5,569 nt of DNA from contig CP144770.1 of the NCBI GenBank assembly GCA_036689235.1, positions 1 through 5,569 on the forward strand, written 5' to 3'. This document shows positions 1 to 5,569 of this stretch, in pieces. The notes beneath the pieces were generated by a model. It did not search any database. It was not told the DNA's origin and saw nothing but the letters and a program-made list of their open reading frames with translations. Positions within the stretch are counted from its first letter, which is position 1; the number at the start of each line of letters is the position of its first letter. Source of the DNA: Candidatus Saccharimonadota bacterium. GTDB lineage: Bacteria > Pseudomonadota > Gammaproteobacteria > Enterobacterales > Enterobacteriaceae. The position numbers and the translations under genes are program-made.

Positions 1-198
1 ATATATATATATTTTATATTACTTTTTTTTTTAAATTATTTTCTAAAAAATATAATAAATAAAAAATAAAATAATAAAATAATTAAAAAAAATTTAATAA
101 AATAATTAATAATTTATAAATAAAAATTTATTATAAAAATATTTGTATATATAAAATTTAATAAAATTATAAATTATAAAAAAAATAAAAATAAAAAT
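1..198. other. Non-coding leader upstream of repA containing only 3 G/C in 198 bp; candidate origin or repA control region
   Basis: Counted directly: the only non-A/T bases are c22, c43 and g145. The single G sits in TTGTAT (143-148), a -35-like hexamer about 50 nt upstream of the repA ATG. A 15-nt string TAATAAAATAATTAA occurs twice (72-86 and 95-109, 23-bp spacing). (AT)6 lies at 1-12. No ORF is present under either code. Confidence 0.4.
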
Positions 199-230
199 AT
201 GAATAATAAAAAAAATAAAAATAAAAATAT
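176..230. repeat. Perfect 25-bp direct repeat x2 (176-200 and 206-230, 30-bp period) straddling the repA start codon
   Basis: ATAAAAAAAATAAAAATAAAAATAT is read identically at 176-200 and 206-230. The repA ATG (199-201) overlaps the end of copy 1, and copy 2 encodes part of the N-terminal KKNKNKNI. Both copies contain the 18-nt core AAAAAAAATAAAAATAAA. Confidence 0.8.
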
Positions 231-981
231 TGGATATGCAAATAATTTTTTAACTAGTATATTAATACCATATTCAAATATATCTAAATATTATTTTGAA
301 AGAACTAATAAAAATAGTTCTTTAAAAATTATTTCTGATCCAAATTATGGATTACCATACGGTAAAATACCAAGAATATTAATGATATGATTATGTACTG
401 AAGTTATATTAAAAAAATCTCCAAAAATATATTTAGGAAAAACTCAAAATGAATTTTTTAAAAAATTAGGTTTTATACCTACTAGCGGAAAAAATGGTTC
501 AATAAATAGAATAAAAAATCAGGTTATAAGATTATTTAATTCTAAAATATCAATTATATATAAAAAAAAAAATTTGTATAAATTTAAAAATTTAAATATT
601 ATAAATAATGCTATTTTATTTTGAAAAAAAAGTAATACATTTTGAAAAAATAATATTTTATTATCTAAACAATTTTATGAAAATATAAAAAATAATTCTA
701 TAAAAATAAATTTAAAAATAATAAAAAATACAAGATCATCACTTACTTTAGATATATATATTTGATTAATATGAAAAATTAAAATATTAAAAACAAAAAA
801 ATCTATTACAATATCTTGAAGAAAAATTGAAATACAATTTAGTTTTAGTAATAAAAATTCTAATAAAAAATTATATAATTTTAAAACAAAATTTATAAAA
901 GAATTAAAATATTTTTTTTCATATTACCCAAAAATTAATATAACTTTTTTAAAAAAAGGATTAATAATTAAAAAAAAATAA
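199..981 (+). CDS. repA: Plasmid replication initiator, RepA_C type (Pfam PF04796-like), 260 aa under translation table 4
   Basis: ATG 199 is the first ATG after the in-frame TAA at 121-123. The frame stays open to TAA 979-981 if six in-frame TGA codons (388, 622, 643, 763, 772, 817) are read as Trp. The product contains GLPYGKIPRILMIWLCTEVILKKSPKIYLGKTQNEFFKKLGFIPTSGKNGSINRIKNQVIRLF, then LFW..TFW, then SSLTLDIYIWLIWK and ITISWRKIEIQF. From memory this follows the RepA_C pattern (LPYG..PRLLL.WL.TEA...I.LG.S..EF...LG..TGG..G...R...Q..RLF ... SPLALDLY.WLTYR ... IPW..L..QFG). The TGA codons fall on the conserved Trp positions. The 63-aa ORF in the supplied track is only the N-terminal fragment. 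Confidence 0.85.
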
Positions 982-998
982 AAATAAATTATTATATA
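971..998. repeat. 28-bp direct repeat, copy 1 (partner at 1106-1133); overlaps the repA stop codon
   Basis: AAAAAAAATAAAAATAAATTATTATATA is read identically at 971-998 and 1106-1133 (135-bp spacing). It shares the 18-nt core AAAAAAAATAAAAATAAA with the repeats at 176-230. Confidence 0.8.
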
Positions 999-1075
999 AT
1001 AATAACATATTAATTATATACTAATATCACATTTCCAATTAAAATTAAAGTTAAATTAATAAATCAAATCCAATT

Positions 1076-1100
1076 CAAAAACAAAACCAAAACCAAAAAT
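1076..1100 (+). repeat. Phased A-tract / CCAAAA-like micro-repeat (CAAAAACAAAACCAAAACCAAAAAT)
   Basis: A5, A4, A4 and A5 tracts are separated by C or CC at roughly 6-nt spacing. This lies inside a strongly strand-skewed stretch (1021-1100) where I counted 14 C and 1 G, between the two 28-bp repeats. Confidence 0.6.
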
Positions 1101-1105
1101 AAAAG

Positions 1106-1133
1106 AAAAAAAATAAAAATAAATTATTATATA
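1106..1133. repeat. 28-bp direct repeat, copy 2 (partner at 971-998)
   Basis: Identical 28-mer, flanked by mismatches on both sides (g1105 vs a970; c1134 vs a999). Confidence 0.8.
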
Positions 1134-1172
1134 CATTATAATAAAAACCAAATTTATAAAATATAAATAAAG

Positions 1173-1202
1173 TTAACTTTTATTTTTTTTTTATGATATA
1201 AT
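1173..1202 (+). promoter_or_regulatory. Candidate sigma70-type promoter for the polygalacturonase gene (TTAACT - 18 bp - TGaTATAAT)
   Basis: A consensus TATAAT lies at 1197-1202, preceded by an extended -10 TG at 1194-1195. The -35-like TTAACT at 1173-1178 matches TTGACA at 4 of 6 positions. This would give a 5' UTR of about 65-70 nt. TATAAT-like strings are common in DNA this AT-rich, so the call is weak. Confidence 0.3.
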
Positions 1203-1266
1203 TATTTTAATTTTTAAATATTTAAATTTTTATGTTTTAATACTTACTTTATTAAACAATTTATAT

Positions 1267-1270
1267 AGGA
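1267..1270 (+). promoter_or_regulatory. Shine-Dalgarno element (AGGA) 5 nt upstream of the polygalacturonase ATG
   Basis: The sequence is tatAGGAtttttATG. None of the other three genes has any purine-rich G-containing motif in the 20 nt before its ATG. Confidence 0.7.
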
Positions 1271-1275
1271 TTTTT

Positions 1276-1335
1276 ATGAAAAAAAGTATATATTTAATTT
1301 TAATGAGTATTTTATTTATAAATACAGCTATAGCT
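1276..1335 (+). other. Sec-type signal peptide of the polygalacturonase (predicted cleavage AIA|SG after residue 20)
   Basis: MKKSIYLILMSILFINTAIA has a basic N-region (KK), a hydrophobic core and an A-x-A cleavage motif. The mature N-terminus SGDTRNIKEP..PSSC lines up with the mature start of PehA as I recall it (SDSRTVSEPKTPSSC). Confidence 0.8.
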
Positions 1336-2517
1336 TCTGGAGATACACGTAATATAAAAGAACCTATAATTCCTTCAAGTTGTATAGTTTTAAAAGCTAA
1401 TAATAAAAATAATACTAATGAAATTCAAAAATCAATAGATACTTGTGCTAAACAAAATAAATTAGTTGAATTAAAATCTGATAATAAAAATTTTCATTTC
1501 TATTCAGGTCCAATAAATATACCTTCTAATGGTGGATTATTAATTAATAAAGGAACTATATTATCTGCTATACCCGATCCTAAATTATATGACAATGGAA
1601 ATAACAAATGTGGTAAATTAGACAATTCAGGTAAATCATGTAAACCTTTTATAATTATAAATAATTCTGAAAATAATGGAATATATGGTGAAGGAATTAT
1701 TGATGGTCAAGGTAATTCAATAATGAAAGGTAGTAATAAAACATGGTGGAATTTAGCTAGTGAAGCTCAAAAAAAAAATCAGTCACAAAATGTTCCAAGA
1801 TTAATAATAATAAAAAATTCAAAAAATTTTACTCTTTATAAAATATCATTAAAAAATTCACCTAACTTTCATGTTTCAACAAATAATGTTAATGGACTTA
1901 CAGTATGGAATATAAATATAAATACTCCTGCTGATGCCCGTAATACTGATGGAATAGATCCAGGTTCATCAACTAATGTAACTATAGCCCATTCATATAT
2001 TAGTACTGGAGATGATAATGTAGCTATAAAAGCTTCTAATGGACCTACATCATATGTATCAATATTAAATAATAATTTTGGTAAAGGACATGGAATGTCA
2101 ATAGGTAGCGAAACATTAGGTAAAGTAAATAATATTTTAGTAGATGGTTTGTCAATGAATGGAACAACTAGCGGTTTACGTATTAAAAGTGATATATCAA
2201 AAGGTGGTTTAGTAAATCTAATTACATATAAAAATATATGTATAAAAGATGTAAAAAATCCTATATATATAGATATGTTTTATAATAAAAGTGCTAAAGG
2301 AAATAAAATACCTGAATTTAAAAATATAAATTTTGATTCAGTAAAAATATTAACACCAGGTAATTTTATTTTTAATGGTATAAAAGGAAATAATATTGAA
2401 GTTATATTTTCTAATGTAAGTATAAAAAAAGGCTCTACAATAGTAATGAATAATGTTACTTCTAAAGGTAAATTAGAAGAAAATGCTACTGGAAATATTT
2501 GTCCTACAAGAAAATAA
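1276..2517 (+). CDS. pehA: Secreted endo-polygalacturonase, glycoside hydrolase family 28 (enterobacterial PehA/Peh-1 type), 413 aa
   Basis: The ORF is intact under both code 11 and code 4. All GH28 signature blocks are present: ARNTDGIDP (D225), STGDDNVAIK (D246/D247), GKGHGMSIGSE (H272) and GLRIKS (R302/K304). Long collinear similarity, recalled from memory, to Pectobacterium carotovorum PehA includes EP..PSSC..LKA, FYSGPI.IPS, NSGIYG.G.IDGQG, WW.LA, PRLI.I.KSKNFTLY..SL.NSPNFHV, NGTT.GLRIKSD and PI.ID. There is an N-terminal signal peptide and an AGGA RBS. Confidence 0.97.
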   Translation: MKKSIYLILMSILFINTAIASGDTRNIKEPIIPSSCIVLKANNKNNTNEIQKSIDTCAKQNKLVELKSDNKNFHFYSGPINIPSNGGLLINKGTILSAIPDPKLYDNGNNKCGKLDNSGKSCKPFIIINNSENNGIYGEGIIDGQGNSIMKGSNKTWWNLASEAQKKNQSQNVPRLIIIKNSKNFTLYKISLKNSPNFHVSTNNVNGLTVWNININTPADARNTDGIDPGSSTNVTIAHSYISTGDDNVAIKASNGPTSYVSILNNNFGKGHGMSIGSETLGKVNNILVDGLSMNGTTSGLRIKSDISKGGLVNLITYKNICIKDVKNPIYIDMFYNKSAKGNKIPEFKNINFDSVKILTPGNFIFNGIKGNNIEVIFSNVSIKKGSTIVMNNVTSKGKLEENATGNICPTRK

Positions 2518-2571
2518 AATAATAAAATAAATAAACAAATTCTTTAAAGAAAAAGATTAAATAAAGTAAGT

Positions 2572-2605
2572 AAATACCTTAAATCTTTTAAGATTTAAGG
2601 TATTT
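2572..2605. terminator. Bidirectional rho-independent terminator shared by the convergent polygalacturonase gene and the minus-strand ORF
   Basis: AAATACCTTAAATCT (2572-2586), a TTTA loop, and AGATTTAAGGTATTT (2591-2605) form a perfect 15-bp stem that I checked pair by pair (3 G:C pairs). T residues follow on the + strand and a T-rich run follows on the - strand. It lies 55 nt after the PG stop (2515-2517) and 9 nt from the minus-ORF stop (2615-2617). Confidence 0.75.
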
Positions 2606-2614
2606 TAAAAAAAA

Positions 2615-3424
2615 TTAAAGATATTTTATTGAAGTTTGTCTTATTCCATTTTTACAAAAAATAATAGAATCTATTTTATATATTTTTTTTTTATTTATTA
2701 AATTATTTTTATATAAATAATATTTTTTAGGTGTTACTCATCAACTTATTTTTCTTCTTTGAAAAAAACATAACATATATCCAATATTACTAATATTATT
2801 TATTTCACTTAATAATATAGAAATATTTTTATTTAAAATACAATTAATAAATTGTAATGTTTTATTACTAAATTTAAATTTTTTTATATATAAAGAAATT
2901 AATAAAAAAATTTTATTTTTATAAAAAATTTTAAATAAATTAAATATTTTAAATAAAATAATATTATTTGGAAAACCTAAAATATTTGGATAATTAATAA
3001 AAATTATTTTATCTAATTTATTTAATTTATTTAAATTATAAAAAAATTTTTTATAAAAACTATATCATTTGTAAATATTAGAACACTGATAATTAATATT
3101 TATAAAAACTTTAATTTTTAAAATATTTTTTATATAATTATATATATTATTAATATAATTTATATAATATAAAATATTAATTTTTTTAAAATTATAAAAT
3201 TTAAAATTTAAAGTTAAATTAATATTATTTTTAAAACATATTTTAATTAAATTTAAAAAAAAAATATTATTTATATCTTCATTATATTTTAATAATATTT
3301 TTATATTATTTATATATTTTATATAATTTATAATTTTTTTAAATTTTATTTTTTTATATAAATTATAAATATTTATACCTCTTATAACAGGTAAAATATT
3401 TTTTTTTTTTAATATTTTCTTCAT
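2615..3424 (-). CDS. Hypothetical protein, 269 aa under translation table 4; no family assignable by eye
   Basis: The track ORF 3065-3424 ends at a TGA (+ strand tca 3065-3067). Read as Trp, the frame continues with no TAA or TAG for another 150 codons to TAA (+ strand tta 2615-2617), passing two more TGA codons at 2741-2743 and 2738-2740 (ISWWVTP). I checked every triplet of the extension. An 810-nt open frame is very unlikely by chance in DNA this AT-rich. The start is ATG at 3424-3422, bounded upstream by an in-frame TAA, with no SD. The protein is dominated by I/K/N/F/Y/L, which limits recognition. Confidence 0.55.
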
Positions 3425-3482
3425 ACATATATTTTATTATAATTAAATATTAAATAATAATATTATTAATAATAAAATAAAT
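3425..3482. promoter_or_regulatory. 58-bp divergent intergenic region, presumed to hold the promoters of the minus-strand ORF and the GH67 gene
   Basis: It is the only space between two divergently oriented start codons (3424 and 3483). It contains TATAAT at 3438-3443 (40 nt before ATG 3483) and a 14-bp palindrome TAATAATATTATTA at 3455-3468. No element is individually convincing in this composition. Confidence 0.3.
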
Positions 3483-5462
3483 ATGATAAAAAAAAATTTT
3501 TCAAAATGTTGAATAAAAAATAAAAATATAAATAAAAATAAAATATACAAAATATTTAAAAATATTTATATAAAAAAAAAATATAATTTTATAAAAAATG
3601 AAATAATTTATTTAATAGGAAAAGAAAAAATAAAATTTAAAAATAGAATTAAAGATTCCAAACTTATATTTTTAACAAATAAAAACTTAAAAAATGAAGA
3701 ATTTATAATTAAAAATATAAAAAATAAAATATTTATTTTTTCCAAAAATAAAAATGGATTTTTATATTCTATATATCATTTATTAGAAATTATAAAATTA
3801 AAAAAAATAAATAAAAAAAATATTTACATATATGAAAAACCCAATATAAAATTAAGAATTATACAACATCTAGATAATTTAGATGGATCAATAGATAAAG
3901 GATATTCTGGAAATTCAATTTTCTTTTTTAAAAATAATATTAATTATAATTTTAATAGAATAATATATTATTGTAGACTATTATGTAGTATTAAAATAAA
4001 TAATATATGTATTAACAATTTTGATGTAAATATACCATCAACTTTTTTAATAACAAAAAATTGATTAATTCAATTATATGAAATATATAAAATATTATAT
4101 AAATATAATATTAAAATGTTTATATCAGTTAATTATCAAAGTCCTTTGATATTAGGTAAATTAAATACATTTGATCCATTAAATAAAAAAGTTATAAAAT
4201 GATGAGAAAATAAAATAGAAGAAATATATTCATACATACCTAAACTTGGAGGAATATTAATAAAAACAGATTCAAAATATAATAAAGGACCTTTATATTA
4301 TAAAAGAAATCACATAGAAGGATGTAAAAATATAGCAAAAAATTTAAAATATTTTAAAGGAATTTTAATATGAAAATGTGATATATATAAAAAACAAAAT
4401 TGAAGAAATAAGAATAAAGATAAAATATTAAATAATTATAAATATTTTAGTAAATTAAATAATAAATTACCAAATAATTTAATTTTACAAATTAATAATC
4501 CTATAGGATATCAAATAAGAGAACCAGTATCTCCTTTATTAGGAAGTATGAATAATACATCTCAAATATTAGAATTACAGATGAATCAAGAATTTACTGG
4601 ACAACAAATAGATTTATGTTGATTACCACCTCAATGAAAAAATATACTTAATTTTGATACACATTATTATAAAAATAAAAAATCTAAAATAAAAAAAATA
4701 ATTTCAGGAAAATTACATAAAAATAATAAATACTATGGAATATCAGTAATTTCTAATATAGGAAATAATTATTATTGAACTAAAAATTATTTATCACAAT
4801 GTAATATATTTAGTTATGGAAAAATATTATGAAATTTAAATATTAATTTAAATAATTTATTAAAAGATTGAATTAAATTATCATTAAGTAACAATAATAA
4901 AATAATAAAAAAAATAAGAAAAATAATTTTTAATAGCTGAAAAAATTATGAAAGATACACTACACCATTAGGATTAGGAGGTATGGTAGATCCAAAATCA
5001 AATTATAAATGTAATATAGATGGATACGAATATATAAATTCAGGTATATATCATAATTCAAATAGATATAGTATAGGATATAATAGAACTTTAAGTGGAT
5101 CAAAATTTACAAAACAATATTTAAATAAAAATTTTATAAAATTTAATAATATAAATAAATGCCCAGAAGATTTAATATTATTTTTTCATAATTTATCATA
5201 TAGTCATTTTTTAAAAAAATATAAATGTTCAATAATACAATATATATATAATTCTCATTTTAAAGGTGTTAAAAATATATATAAATGAATAAAATTATGA
5301 AAAAAAACAAAATTTTATATAAATAAAAATATATTTAAAAATGTTAAAAAAAAACTAAAGAAACAATTTAAAAATTCTATTGAATGAAGAGATAAAATAA
5401 ATACATATTTTTATAGAAAATCAGGTATAAAAGATAAATTTAATAGAAAAATATATGAATAA
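3483..5462 (+). CDS. aguA: GH67 alpha-glucuronidase homolog, 659 aa under translation table 4; the active site appears degenerate (see findings)
   Basis: From ATG 3483 to TAA 5460-5462 the frame is open when 15 in-frame TGA codons are read as Trp (3510, 4062, 4200, 4203, 4371, 4401, 4620, 4635, 4776, 4830, 4869, 4938, 5286, 5298, 5385). I translated codon by codon. It is collinear with Geobacillus stearothermophilus AguA as I recall it: LRIIQHLDNLDGSIDKGYSGNSIFF vs [39 protein letters not shown] vs YIPDFGGFVVKADS; IREPVSPLLGSM vs VREPVSPLFGAM; NQEFTGQQ vs TQEYTGQQ; PPQWKNILNFDT vs IPQWKEVLDFDT; SWKNYERYTTPLGLGGMV vs SWRIYENYTSPLGVGWMV; CPEDLILFFH vs CPDELLLFFH; and the C-terminus [26 protein letters not shown] vs [26 protein letters not shown]. 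At least 11 of the 15 TGA codons align with Trp in that enzyme. There is no signal peptide. The 101-aa track ORF 4983-5288 is an internal fragment. Confidence 0.92.
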
Positions 5463-5569
5463 ATTTATATTATATTTTTTTTATAAAATAAAATTATAAA
5501 TTTATTAAAATATATTTATAATATAATATATATATATATTAATTTAATAAATTAATTATAATAATATAT
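5458..5569. other. 112-bp tract of pure A/T after the GH67 stop, including (AT)7 at 5526-5539 and (AT)3 at the window end
   Basis: The last G is g5457, and I found no G or C from 5458 to 5569. The window starts with (AT)6, so joining the ends would create an (AT)9 run and about 133 bp of uninterrupted A/T (5458 through 21). Confidence 0.7.

Follow-up and report, generated by a model that had tools for sequence, protein, structure and literature searches.

The stretch of DNA analysed here, to which we refer as the window, comprises all 5,569 nucleotides of contig CP144770.1 (assembly GCA_036689235.1). As shown in Table 1, it carries a plasmid replication gene, repA, together with a cargo of three genes, namely a polygalacturonase (PG) of glycoside hydrolase family GH28, an open reading frame (ORF) in reverse orientation which we call ORF3, and a homolog of the GH67 alpha-glucuronidases. 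These four, and no further ones, are the ORFs of at least 50 aa that were called in the window with genetic code 4, where UGA is read as Trp; if the standard bacterial code is applied instead, the frames are broken up. We regard the window, with a probability of about 0.8, as a complete circular plasmid of 5,569 bp from a strain of Candidatus Stammera capleta, belonging to the published "PG + AG" type (AG being the GH67 gene), in which the pectinase is functional, while ORF3 and the GH67 homolog have decayed and are retained in a non-canonical capacity.

Table 1. Features discussed in the text, in window nucleotides unless another record is named
Feature	Position	Strand	Basis or remark
repA, plasmid replication initiator, 260 aa	199..981	+	PF04796 RepA_C, E=9e-23
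Candidate origin region with a pair of direct repeats of 45 nt (954-998, 1089-1133)	954..1133		Repeats 84% identical
PG promoter candidate: TTAACT, 18 nt, TATAAT, extended -10 (TG at 1194-1195)	1173..1202	+	Top-scoring promoter-like site in the window
Shine-Dalgarno AGGA, 5 nt 5' of the PG start codon	1267..1270	+	ATAGGAT invariant in the five closest plasmids
PG, GH28 endo-polygalacturonase of PehA type, 413 aa	1276..2517	+	PF00295, E=9e-60, 203 bits
Predicted PG signal peptide, residues 1-22	1276-1341	+	Hydrophobic N-terminus MKKSIYLILMSILFINTAIASG; mature PehA N-terminus aligns to residue 23
33-nt block in the 3' untranslated region of PG, AATTCTTTAAAGAAAAAGATTAAATAAAGTAAG	2538..2570		100% identical in the window and L001-L004
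15-bp hairpin between convergent PG and ORF3, candidate bidirectional terminator	2572..2605		Sole terminator-like site found, against 0.3 expected
ORF3, probable degenerate GH5 beta-mannanase homolog, 269 aa	2615..3424	-	Synteny, profile comparison, fold
ORF3 Glu207, equivalent of the nucleophile (LLSEINN vs GEFG, strand 7)	2804-2806	-	Present, by alignment
ORF3 acid/base NE motif absent, FININYQC in its place	3083-3106	-	ANEW of L011 aligns here
GH67 homolog ("alpha-glucuronidase"), 659 aa	3483..5462	+	PF07488 middle domain, E=2.5e-102; PF07477 C-terminal domain, E=2.4e-63
Lys265 (AAA) at the position of AguA Glu285 (catalytic acid)	4275..4277	+	Gapless local alignment, ADSEF vs TDSKY
Gly342 (GGA), aligned to AguA Asp364	4506..4508	+	Alignment
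Glu370 retained, equal to AguA Glu392	4590-4592	+	Alignment
GH67-repA spacer, about 90% A+T	5463..5569, continuing 1-198 across the record junction		Poorly conserved in an alignment across relatives
Integrated cassette in chromosome CP144768.1	Record positions 140788-157597; locus coordinates 5959-10093		Agrees with published integration events

Identity and circularity of the replicon

When the window was searched by megablast against PLSDB, 19 matches were obtained, and all of them (19/19) are plasmids of Ca. Stammera capleta. The best ones reach 84.7-85.6% identity across 78-80% of the window, with sizes of 5.5-5.8 kb, the top three being CP144816.1, CP043986.1 (from Chelymorpha alternans) and CP144814.1. 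The order and orientation repA-PG-ORF3(reverse)-GH67 are identical in six of the related loci, which we number L001-L004, L007 and L012, and the amino acid identity between the window and its closest plasmids is about 90% for PG, about 80% for GH67, 57-75% for RepA and 56-62% for ORF3. The host would be Ca. Stammera capleta, the extracellular, genome-reduced and UGA=Trp-recoded Enterobacterales symbiont of tortoise beetles. Strains of Stammera have been reported to carry one or two plasmids, 2.5-9 kb in size, on which PG, GH67 and further host-beneficial enzymes are encoded, and in the symbiont of C. alternans both PG and GH67 are plasmid-borne and the plasmid copy number goes up in the feeding stages (bioRxiv 10.1101/2023.12.12.571295). 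The replicon is already known, namely as a deposited member of this published plasmid class.

Moreover, the exact ORF3 and GH67 proteins were found in a public protein collection, where they lead to the whole-genome shotgun contig JADDOK010000003.1 (our L012) of assembly GCA_015142155.1. This contig is 5,688 bp long; its ends carry a direct repeat of 119 bp, the subtraction of which leaves 5,569 bp. The window is a circular permutation of it with two mismatches (99.96% identity). The window junction 5569|1 is internal to the contig, while the 119-bp overlap of the contig corresponds to window positions 993-1111, in the candidate origin region. Because each of the two records bridges the break point of the other, a closed circular, extrachromosomal molecule of 5,569 bp is supported, at the level of assembly overlap. 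Four relatives (CP043986.1, CP144816.1, CP144814.1 and CP144818.1) were submitted as circular, complete plasmids, 5.5-5.8 kb in size, and have the four genes in common. Since the window differs from JADDOK010000003.1 at two positions and starts at another point on the circle, it is probably a second, re-circularised deposit of one plasmid.

Most of what a previous reading of the letters alone (hereafter the sequence-only reading) had proposed for this replicon is borne out by our results. It had described a plasmid-type RepA_C initiator accompanied by just three other genes, and repA indeed matches PF04796 with 81.8 bits against a cut-off of 26, over profile positions 2-179 of 181. Its plasmid-like mini-replicon free of housekeeping genes agrees with the overlap described above and with the window, in which no flanking housekeeping gene is present. 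It had seen no mobilisation, partition, toxin or transposase genes; none is found among the window's ORFs, and PLSDB types 19/19 of the related plasmids as non-mobilizable. The extreme AT content that it stressed corresponds to 14% GC overall, ranging in 500-nt windows from 4.6% around ORF3 to 26% within PG, and the resemblance to Stammera that it named is what the PLSDB matches display. Its assignment of the PG to an enterobacterial PehA type is supported by the alignment given below and also by the nearest GH67 relatives outside Stammera, which belong to Klebsiella. The window was also searched for tRNA genes and Rfam families, and none was found. As to the accessory replicon for digestive enzymes that the sequence-only reading envisaged, the Stammera plasmid with an intact PG stands, but GH67 and ORF3 prove to be without key catalytic residues.

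Loss of catalytic carboxylates in the GH67 homolog

The GH67 homolog can be recognised without difficulty. Besides the two domains listed in Table 1, it matches G. stearothermophilus AguA with E=4e-163, and the nearest relatives outside Stammera are the Klebsiella AguA proteins with 40-41% identity. The N-terminal domain PF03648 is matched weakly (E=0.068 over 36 residues), and the Klebsiella homologs are likewise without a recorded PF03648. The middle and C-terminal domains are in line with the alpha-glucuronidase homolog of the sequence-only reading; what is doubtful is its implied activity on glucuronoxylan side chains, as far as this depends on the catalytic acid and one candidate base, both of which are lost.

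In AguA, Glu285 is what we take to be the catalytic acid, and Asp364 and Glu392 are presumably the candidate bases; in Cellvibrio japonicus GlcA67A we take the corresponding residues to be Glu292 (acid) and Asp365 and Glu393 (candidate bases). These roles are said to have been described by Zaide (2001), Nurizzo (2002) and Golan (2004). At the three positions the window protein has Lys265, Gly342 and Glu370, so that by alignment a single one of the three carboxylates is retained. In the C. japonicus GH67, Glu, Asp and Glu fall into these three columns too, the numbering being offset by +4, and the PDB set includes an E285N mutant of AguA at exactly the column of the window's Lys265.

The substitution is found only in Stammera within a survey of 84 homologs from a large protein collection, 60 of them non-Stammera and 24 from Stammera. 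Glu/Asp/Glu occupies the three catalytic columns in all of the non-Stammera proteins (60/60) versus 5/24 of those from Stammera, where 19 of the 24 carry K, N, C, I or T at position 285 and 18 have Gly or a gap at position 364. The loop after position 285 is shortened in several Stammera lineages. The loss also reaches beyond the active site residues: 98 columns are invariant in the non-Stammera GH67s, and the window protein keeps 76 of them (78%), with W150, E158, R159, N201, K359, G361, F365 and W540 among the other positions lost. As for the five Stammera proteins of hispine type, which retain Glu/Asp/Glu, four keep 93-94 of the 98 invariant columns and the fifth keeps 84.

The ratio of nonsynonymous to synonymous substitution rates (dN/dS) was compared with neutral simulations at matching composition, conditioned on the absence of stop codons. 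Among five plasmids that all share the residue loss, the ratio for GH67 is 0.15-0.28 against a neutral value of 1.12, and for GH67 as well as ORF3 it falls below the 2.5th percentile of the simulations. Judged from these alignments, the GH67 homolog is without two of its three catalytic carboxylates, yet under strong purifying selection.

In the literature the gene is named "AG, a xylanase" by annotation (PMC12905250; bioRxiv 10.1101/2023.12.12.571295). No signal peptide is evident by eye in either GH67 or ORF3. In some plasmids an MFS transporter gene adjoins GH67 (L005 2918-4126, L006 6534-7736, L008 5588-6772), and a xanthine/uracil-permease fragment is located at 1975-2802 in L009. The MFS gene next to GH67 could hint at an ancestral cassette in which oligosaccharides were imported for cleavage inside the cell, rather than cleaved by a secreted enzyme.

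ORF3, a probable relic of a GH5 beta-mannanase

The fourth gene had been left as an orphan by the sequence-only reading. In fact ORF3 has no Pfam or NCBIfam match, eight of its orthologs have no Pfam match (PF00150 included) at E up to 1, and a profile search against PDB sequences gave chance-level matches alone. Synteny, profile comparison and fold nevertheless point to a catalytically degenerate GH5, and the label of orphan is to be dropped. Eight further plasmids (L001-L008) and one chromosome carry intact orthologs, which measure 245-277 aa and in every case are convergent to PG. The syntenic ORF in plasmid pStCha1 (our L011) matches the GH5 family PF00150 with E=2e-30 and the Bacillus beta-mannanase 1WKY with E=6e-74; when the ORF3 profile was compared with this GH5 by hhalign, a probability of 95.8% was obtained (E=6.6e-9, 250 columns), and the ORF3 ortholog of L005 matches it by blastp over the full length (E=1.4e-12). 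Moreover, the AF2 model of ORF3 consists of alternating beta and alpha elements, and its top three Foldseek matches are T. fusca GH5 mannanase, with E about 1e-6 and TM 0.56.

With respect to catalysis, the acid/base Glu at the NE(W) site on strand 4 is absent in 10/10 ORF3 orthologs. The Glu equivalent to the nucleophile is still found in the window protein, and is replaced by K or N in three orthologs (L005, L006 and L008). ORF3 is the least conserved of the genes, with 56-62% amino acid identity among close relatives, a GC content of 7%, and a composition dominated by I, K, N, F and Y.

Such a composition makes stop codons easy to acquire, and the chance of an open frame of 269 codons is 4e-15, the other five frames holding 14-48 stops. 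In simulations of neutral ORF3 copies, a fraction of 5e-5 is still open after 80 substitutions and 0/20,000 after 160, while real ORF3 orthologs differ at about 160 or more sites. For ORF3 the dN/dS (NG86) amounts to 0.42-0.74, whereas the neutral simulations have a mean of 1.31 and a 2.5th percentile of 0.80. Where the orthologs differ in length, their frame stays intact, and synonymous changes leave the C-terminal motif CKNGIRQTSIK conserved. Altogether, ORF3 is probably a highly diverged relic of a GH5 (subfamily 8-like) beta-mannanase, catalytically dead and kept open by selection. Because GH5 has been stated to be restricted to the symbionts of hispine beetles (bioRxiv 10.1101/2023.12.12.571295), the relic seems to be unrecognised so far.

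History of the cassette

The chromosome CP144768.1 (our L014, 268 kb) contains PG-ORF3-GH67 between eno and truA. The three ORFs are intact there (415, 269 and 661 aa), and a RepA homolog could not be detected at this integrated cassette. Since the chromosomal cassette is intact without repA, ORF3 and GH67 would be kept for a reason unrelated to plasmid replication. A role of ORF3 as a plasmid-maintenance gene was also considered, and is rejected because the gene survives the chromosomal integration and repA does not.

What occupies the slot between PG and GH67 varies among the plasmids: in some it is a GH5 or the relic of one, in others a PL4 lyase. For example in pStCha1 (CP144823.1), which is called hispine-type, the backbone order RepA-PG-GH5(reverse)-GH67 is the same as in the window; unlike in the window, however, the GC content is 22%, a CE8 pectin methylesterase is present in addition, the GH5 is Pfam-recognised and has NEW and GEFG motifs, and the GH67 has the full Glu/Asp/Glu and keeps 93/98 of the family-invariant columns. 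By sequence, pStCha1 looks like a less decayed state of the window cassette. On the other side, p1 (CP043986.1), pStChg1 (CP144816.1), pStChb1 (CP144814.1) and pStChc1 (CP144818.1) share with the window the four genes, their order and orientation, the size of 5.5-5.8 kb, code 4 and a GC content of 14-16%, as well as the PG promoter, the ribosome-binding site, the 33-nt block, the Lys/Gly of GH67 and the GH5 relic, and differ from it by about 15% nucleotide divergence. A strict coupling between the decay of GH5 and the loss of the GH67 active site was considered and rejected: among plasmids with PL4, the GH67 is without Glu285/Asp364 in L010 but intact in CP144772.1 and CP144854.1.

Polygalacturonase and its flanking signals

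As regards PG, the secreted GH28 enzyme of the sequence-only reading is supported at each step. The protein matches Pectobacterium PehA (1BHE) with E=3e-102 over residues 23-396, while plant and fungal PGs reach 1e-28 or weaker. The catalytic motifs are intact and identical to those of PehA, namely NTD (1942-1953), GDD (2008-2019), GHG (2086-2100) and RIK (2179-2190), and the alignment to mature PehA leaves a clear signal peptide in front. PG is the most conserved gene in terms of selection, with about 90% amino acid identity to the nearest orthologs and a dN/dS of 0.11-0.19, the lowest of the four. Its GC content is 24% versus 7-14% in the other three window genes, and lies at 23-28% in all 12 plasmids.

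The candidate signals around PG are likewise conserved. The promoter motif TTATGATATAATTA shows 0-1 substitutions in L001-L004; because the scan found 78 promoter-like sites in the window and a mean of 85 in shuffled sequences, so that the count is not above the shuffled expectation, it is this conservation, and not the scan, that supports the promoter. The block ATACTTACTTTATTAAACAA in the 5' untranslated region has 0-2 substitutions among the five closest plasmids. Beyond the 3' end of the gene, the 33-nt block (Table 1) is invariant despite a difference of about 15% between the plasmids elsewhere and despite the divergence of the adjoining non-coding DNA; in L005-L008 nothing but its last 12 nt, AAATAAAGTAAG, is preserved, and the block has no significant structure of its own (folding z=-0.66). 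The hairpin that follows has about -18 kcal/mol, with z=-3.8 on the plus strand and z=-4.1 on the minus strand, and in relatives a hairpin is found at the same position with another sequence, for example AAAACCC...GGGTTTT.

Taken together, PG is clearly, by its sequence features, the functional cargo gene, and the sole one with the full machinery of motifs, signal peptide, promoter and ribosome-binding site. The multicopy plasmid would then amplify a secreted pectinase of PehA type for the host, with an activity such as that known from sister strains: in the C. alternans strain, experiments indicated that the beetle digests pectin with PG and that a higher plasmid copy number raises the dose (bioRxiv 10.1101/2023.12.12.571295).

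Replication initiator, candidate origin and genetic code

RepA orthologs are present in every Stammera plasmid examined, with 49-75% amino acid identity, and the dN/dS of repA (NG86) is 0.18-0.36 versus a neutral expectation of 1.14. The ortholog in L010, which is less A+T-biased, matches 1,075 PLSDB plasmids annotated RepA. As a member of the PF04796 family, RepA would replicate the plasmid, and the origin is probably located in the repeat-bearing spacer between repA and PG. Here, in a region of strongly negative GC skew, the two 45-nt repeats flank a C-rich tract of CAAAAC repeats (1076-1104), and these spacer repeats are iteron candidates. The corresponding spacer of L001, a C. alternans plasmid, holds a tandem array of 80 bp x 2.9 with poly-C tracts (94% matches, score 408), and that of L003 is similar; the window spacer is shorter, with its two 45-nt repeats in place of the array. 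A spacer alignment detected no sequence conservation of the repeats across plasmids. In the other spacer, between GH67 and repA, there is a loose 30-nt periodicity at 46-230 (TRF period 30 x 6.3 copies, 68% matches).

Outside Stammera, the RepA of the IncW plasmid R388 belongs to the same Pfam family, and the L010 RepA is 33% identical to it (E=9e-41, 89% of the length). Unlike the window, R388 is 34 kb in size and conjugative, with partition and transfer genes, and no equivalent of the IncW-like iterons or oriV was identified in the window. A closer match in size is the plasmid NZ_CP012592.1 (5458 bp) of the psyllid symbiont Ca. Profftella armatura, with a RepA of the same family that is 37% identical to a Stammera RepA. 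As tiny, non-mobilizable plasmids with host-useful genes in a reduced symbiont, the Buchnera pLeu/pTrp plasmids, the pectinase symbiosis of Macropleicola and the Profftella plasmid are all comparable; Stammera has indeed been compared with the copy-number control of Buchnera pLeu and with the Macropleicola PG (bioRxiv 10.1101/2023.12.12.571295). The window differs from plasmids of the pLeu/pTrp type in that its cargo would be a secreted digestive enzyme and two hydrolase relics, not amino-acid biosynthesis genes.

Code 4 has been used to annotate Stammera (bioRxiv 10.1101/2023.12.12.571295), and the UGA=Trp usage claimed by the sequence-only reading is also upheld here. In the GH67 gene Trp is encoded by TGA throughout (15/15), and 11 of these 15 codons align to Trp in G. 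stearothermophilus AguA; in-frame TGA codons amount to 24 across three window genes, with 6 in repA and 15 in GH67. From this codon alignment, the recoding in the window is real. The window PG encodes Trp by TGG alone; a specific avoidance of TGA by PG was considered and rejected, as the PG genes of other strains do use TGA. In the window and most of L001-L009, L011 and L017, Trp is nearly always TGA, and in L010 (CP144791.1), L016 (CP144772.1) and L018 (CP144778.1) there is no in-frame TGA, with TGG counts of 35, 39 and 23. Going by these counts, not every plasmid labelled Ca. Stammera capleta is recoded, and some lineages may keep the standard code.

Possible roles of the retained genes

For both ORF3 and GH67, the residue loss and the selection are observed. 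The two genes would most likely be retained for a non-canonical role, for example binding or another non-hydrolytic function, because both are under purifying selection and both are intact after the move into a chromosome with repA lost. Whether this extends to a whole group of symbionts is a matter on which we would put even odds, namely that in the Stammera of tortoise beetles PG is the sole working digestive enzyme, and GH67 and the GH5 relic are conserved pseudoenzymes with a non-hydrolytic function such as oligosaccharide binding or assisting PG. Pseudoenzymes are known among glycoside hydrolases, for example the GH18 chitinase-like lectins. The likeness to these, which we offer as an analogy, is that selection acts on the fold and most of the sequence while other residues stand in for the catalytic carboxylates. 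The interpretation of two of the three cargo genes as pseudoenzymes is the sole new part of our results, and in the literature, as far as accessible, it appears to be unrecognised.

Several points weigh against this interpretation. The roles of the GH67 residues are taken from the established literature, supported by the E285N entry, the C. japonicus numbering and the 60/60 conservation. The strong purifying selection on GH67, together with its published up-regulation in the feeding stages, could equally mean an enzyme with a rearranged catalytic apparatus. The structure model of ORF3 is of low confidence (pLDDT 58), and the pairwise match of the window ORF3 to the GH5 of L011 is weak (E=0.022), so that the case is transitive via profiles and synteny. 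As to the replicon, the candidate origin region of the window holds only two imperfect repeats.

The main alternative is the view of the literature that the cargo genes are working digestive enzymes. GH67 would then be an active alpha-glucuronidase which, with substitute acid/base residues, removes (Me)GlcA from the xylo-oligosaccharides of beetle GH10 enzymes. Such an activity would account for the dN/dS of 0.15-0.28 and for the retention of Glu392, Glu386 and 78% of the family-invariant columns; in addition, the gene is up-regulated in the symbiotic organs of larval as well as adult beetles, the host beetles encode GH10 xylanases (bioRxiv 10.1101/2023.12.12.571295), and GH67 has been described as a host-beneficial factor (PMC12905250). 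However, we consider this unlikely. The acid position, which is Glu in every non-Stammera protein of the survey, is unconstrained in Stammera (K, N, C, I, T), the loop following it is shortened in several lineages, and Asp364 is lost along with other family-invariant positions. By eye, GH67 also shows no signal peptide such as is clear in PG, and polymeric xylan is not attacked by GH67 enzymes anyway, since they act on xylo-oligosaccharides only (PMC3879575). No activity assay of GH67 was found in the Stammera literature, as far as accessible.

A further alternative is that ORF3 and GH67 are functionless pseudogenes awaiting deletion, whose open frames are historical accidents. It would fit the lost catalytic residues of both genes, the drift of ORF3 to 7% GC with a few dominant amino acids and the lowest conservation, as well as the absence of ORF3 from L009 and L010 and the truncation of GH67 in L010. 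Nevertheless it is very improbable in the light of the results above, for at least 10 diverged lineages have an open ORF3 frame though stops arise easily at this composition, whereas simulated neutral copies hardly ever stay open over such distances; the dN/dS of both genes is under the 2.5th percentile of the neutral simulations; the length changes of ORF3 keep the frame, and its C-terminal motif is preserved by synonymous changes. Moreover, both genes survived the move into the chromosome of a genome of only 268 kb.

Finally, that the window is a chromosomal segment or an assembly artefact merely appearing circular, and not an autonomous plasmid, is scarcely credible: although the cassette is chromosomal in one strain (CP144768.1), integrations of the cassette into the chromosome have been reported (bioRxiv 10.1101/2023.12.12.571295) and the assembly overlap is the sole basis of circularity, the window has an intact repA under purifying selection, which the integrated copy does not have, it is free of flanking housekeeping genes, an independent shotgun contig permuted relative to it bears the 119-bp terminal repeat, and four close relatives with matching genes are complete circular plasmids of 5.5-5.8 kb.

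Implications for the symbiosis

The replicon itself adds nothing new; the plasmid class to which it belongs underpins a well-studied digestive symbiosis between beetles and bacteria. In this field, the digestive range of the symbiont and the outcomes of cross-infection are inferred from the presence or absence of the PG, RL and AG genes. If the AG of most tortoise-beetle symbionts is without its catalytic acid, such inferences about digestive range need an enzymatic check, and if GH67 and ORF3 are indeed pseudoenzymes, the published "digestive range" (PG + AG) of these symbionts would be overstated.

The history of the mannanase would change as well. With ORF3 as a GH5 relic, the mannanase would be an ancestral gene that is decaying in many tortoise-beetle lineages; if this is true, the cassette ancestral to the tortoise-beetle lineages would likewise have included GH5, which would then not be confined to the hispine symbionts. 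That a genome of 0.27 Mb should keep a 2-kb pseudoenzyme under strong purifying selection demands an explanation.

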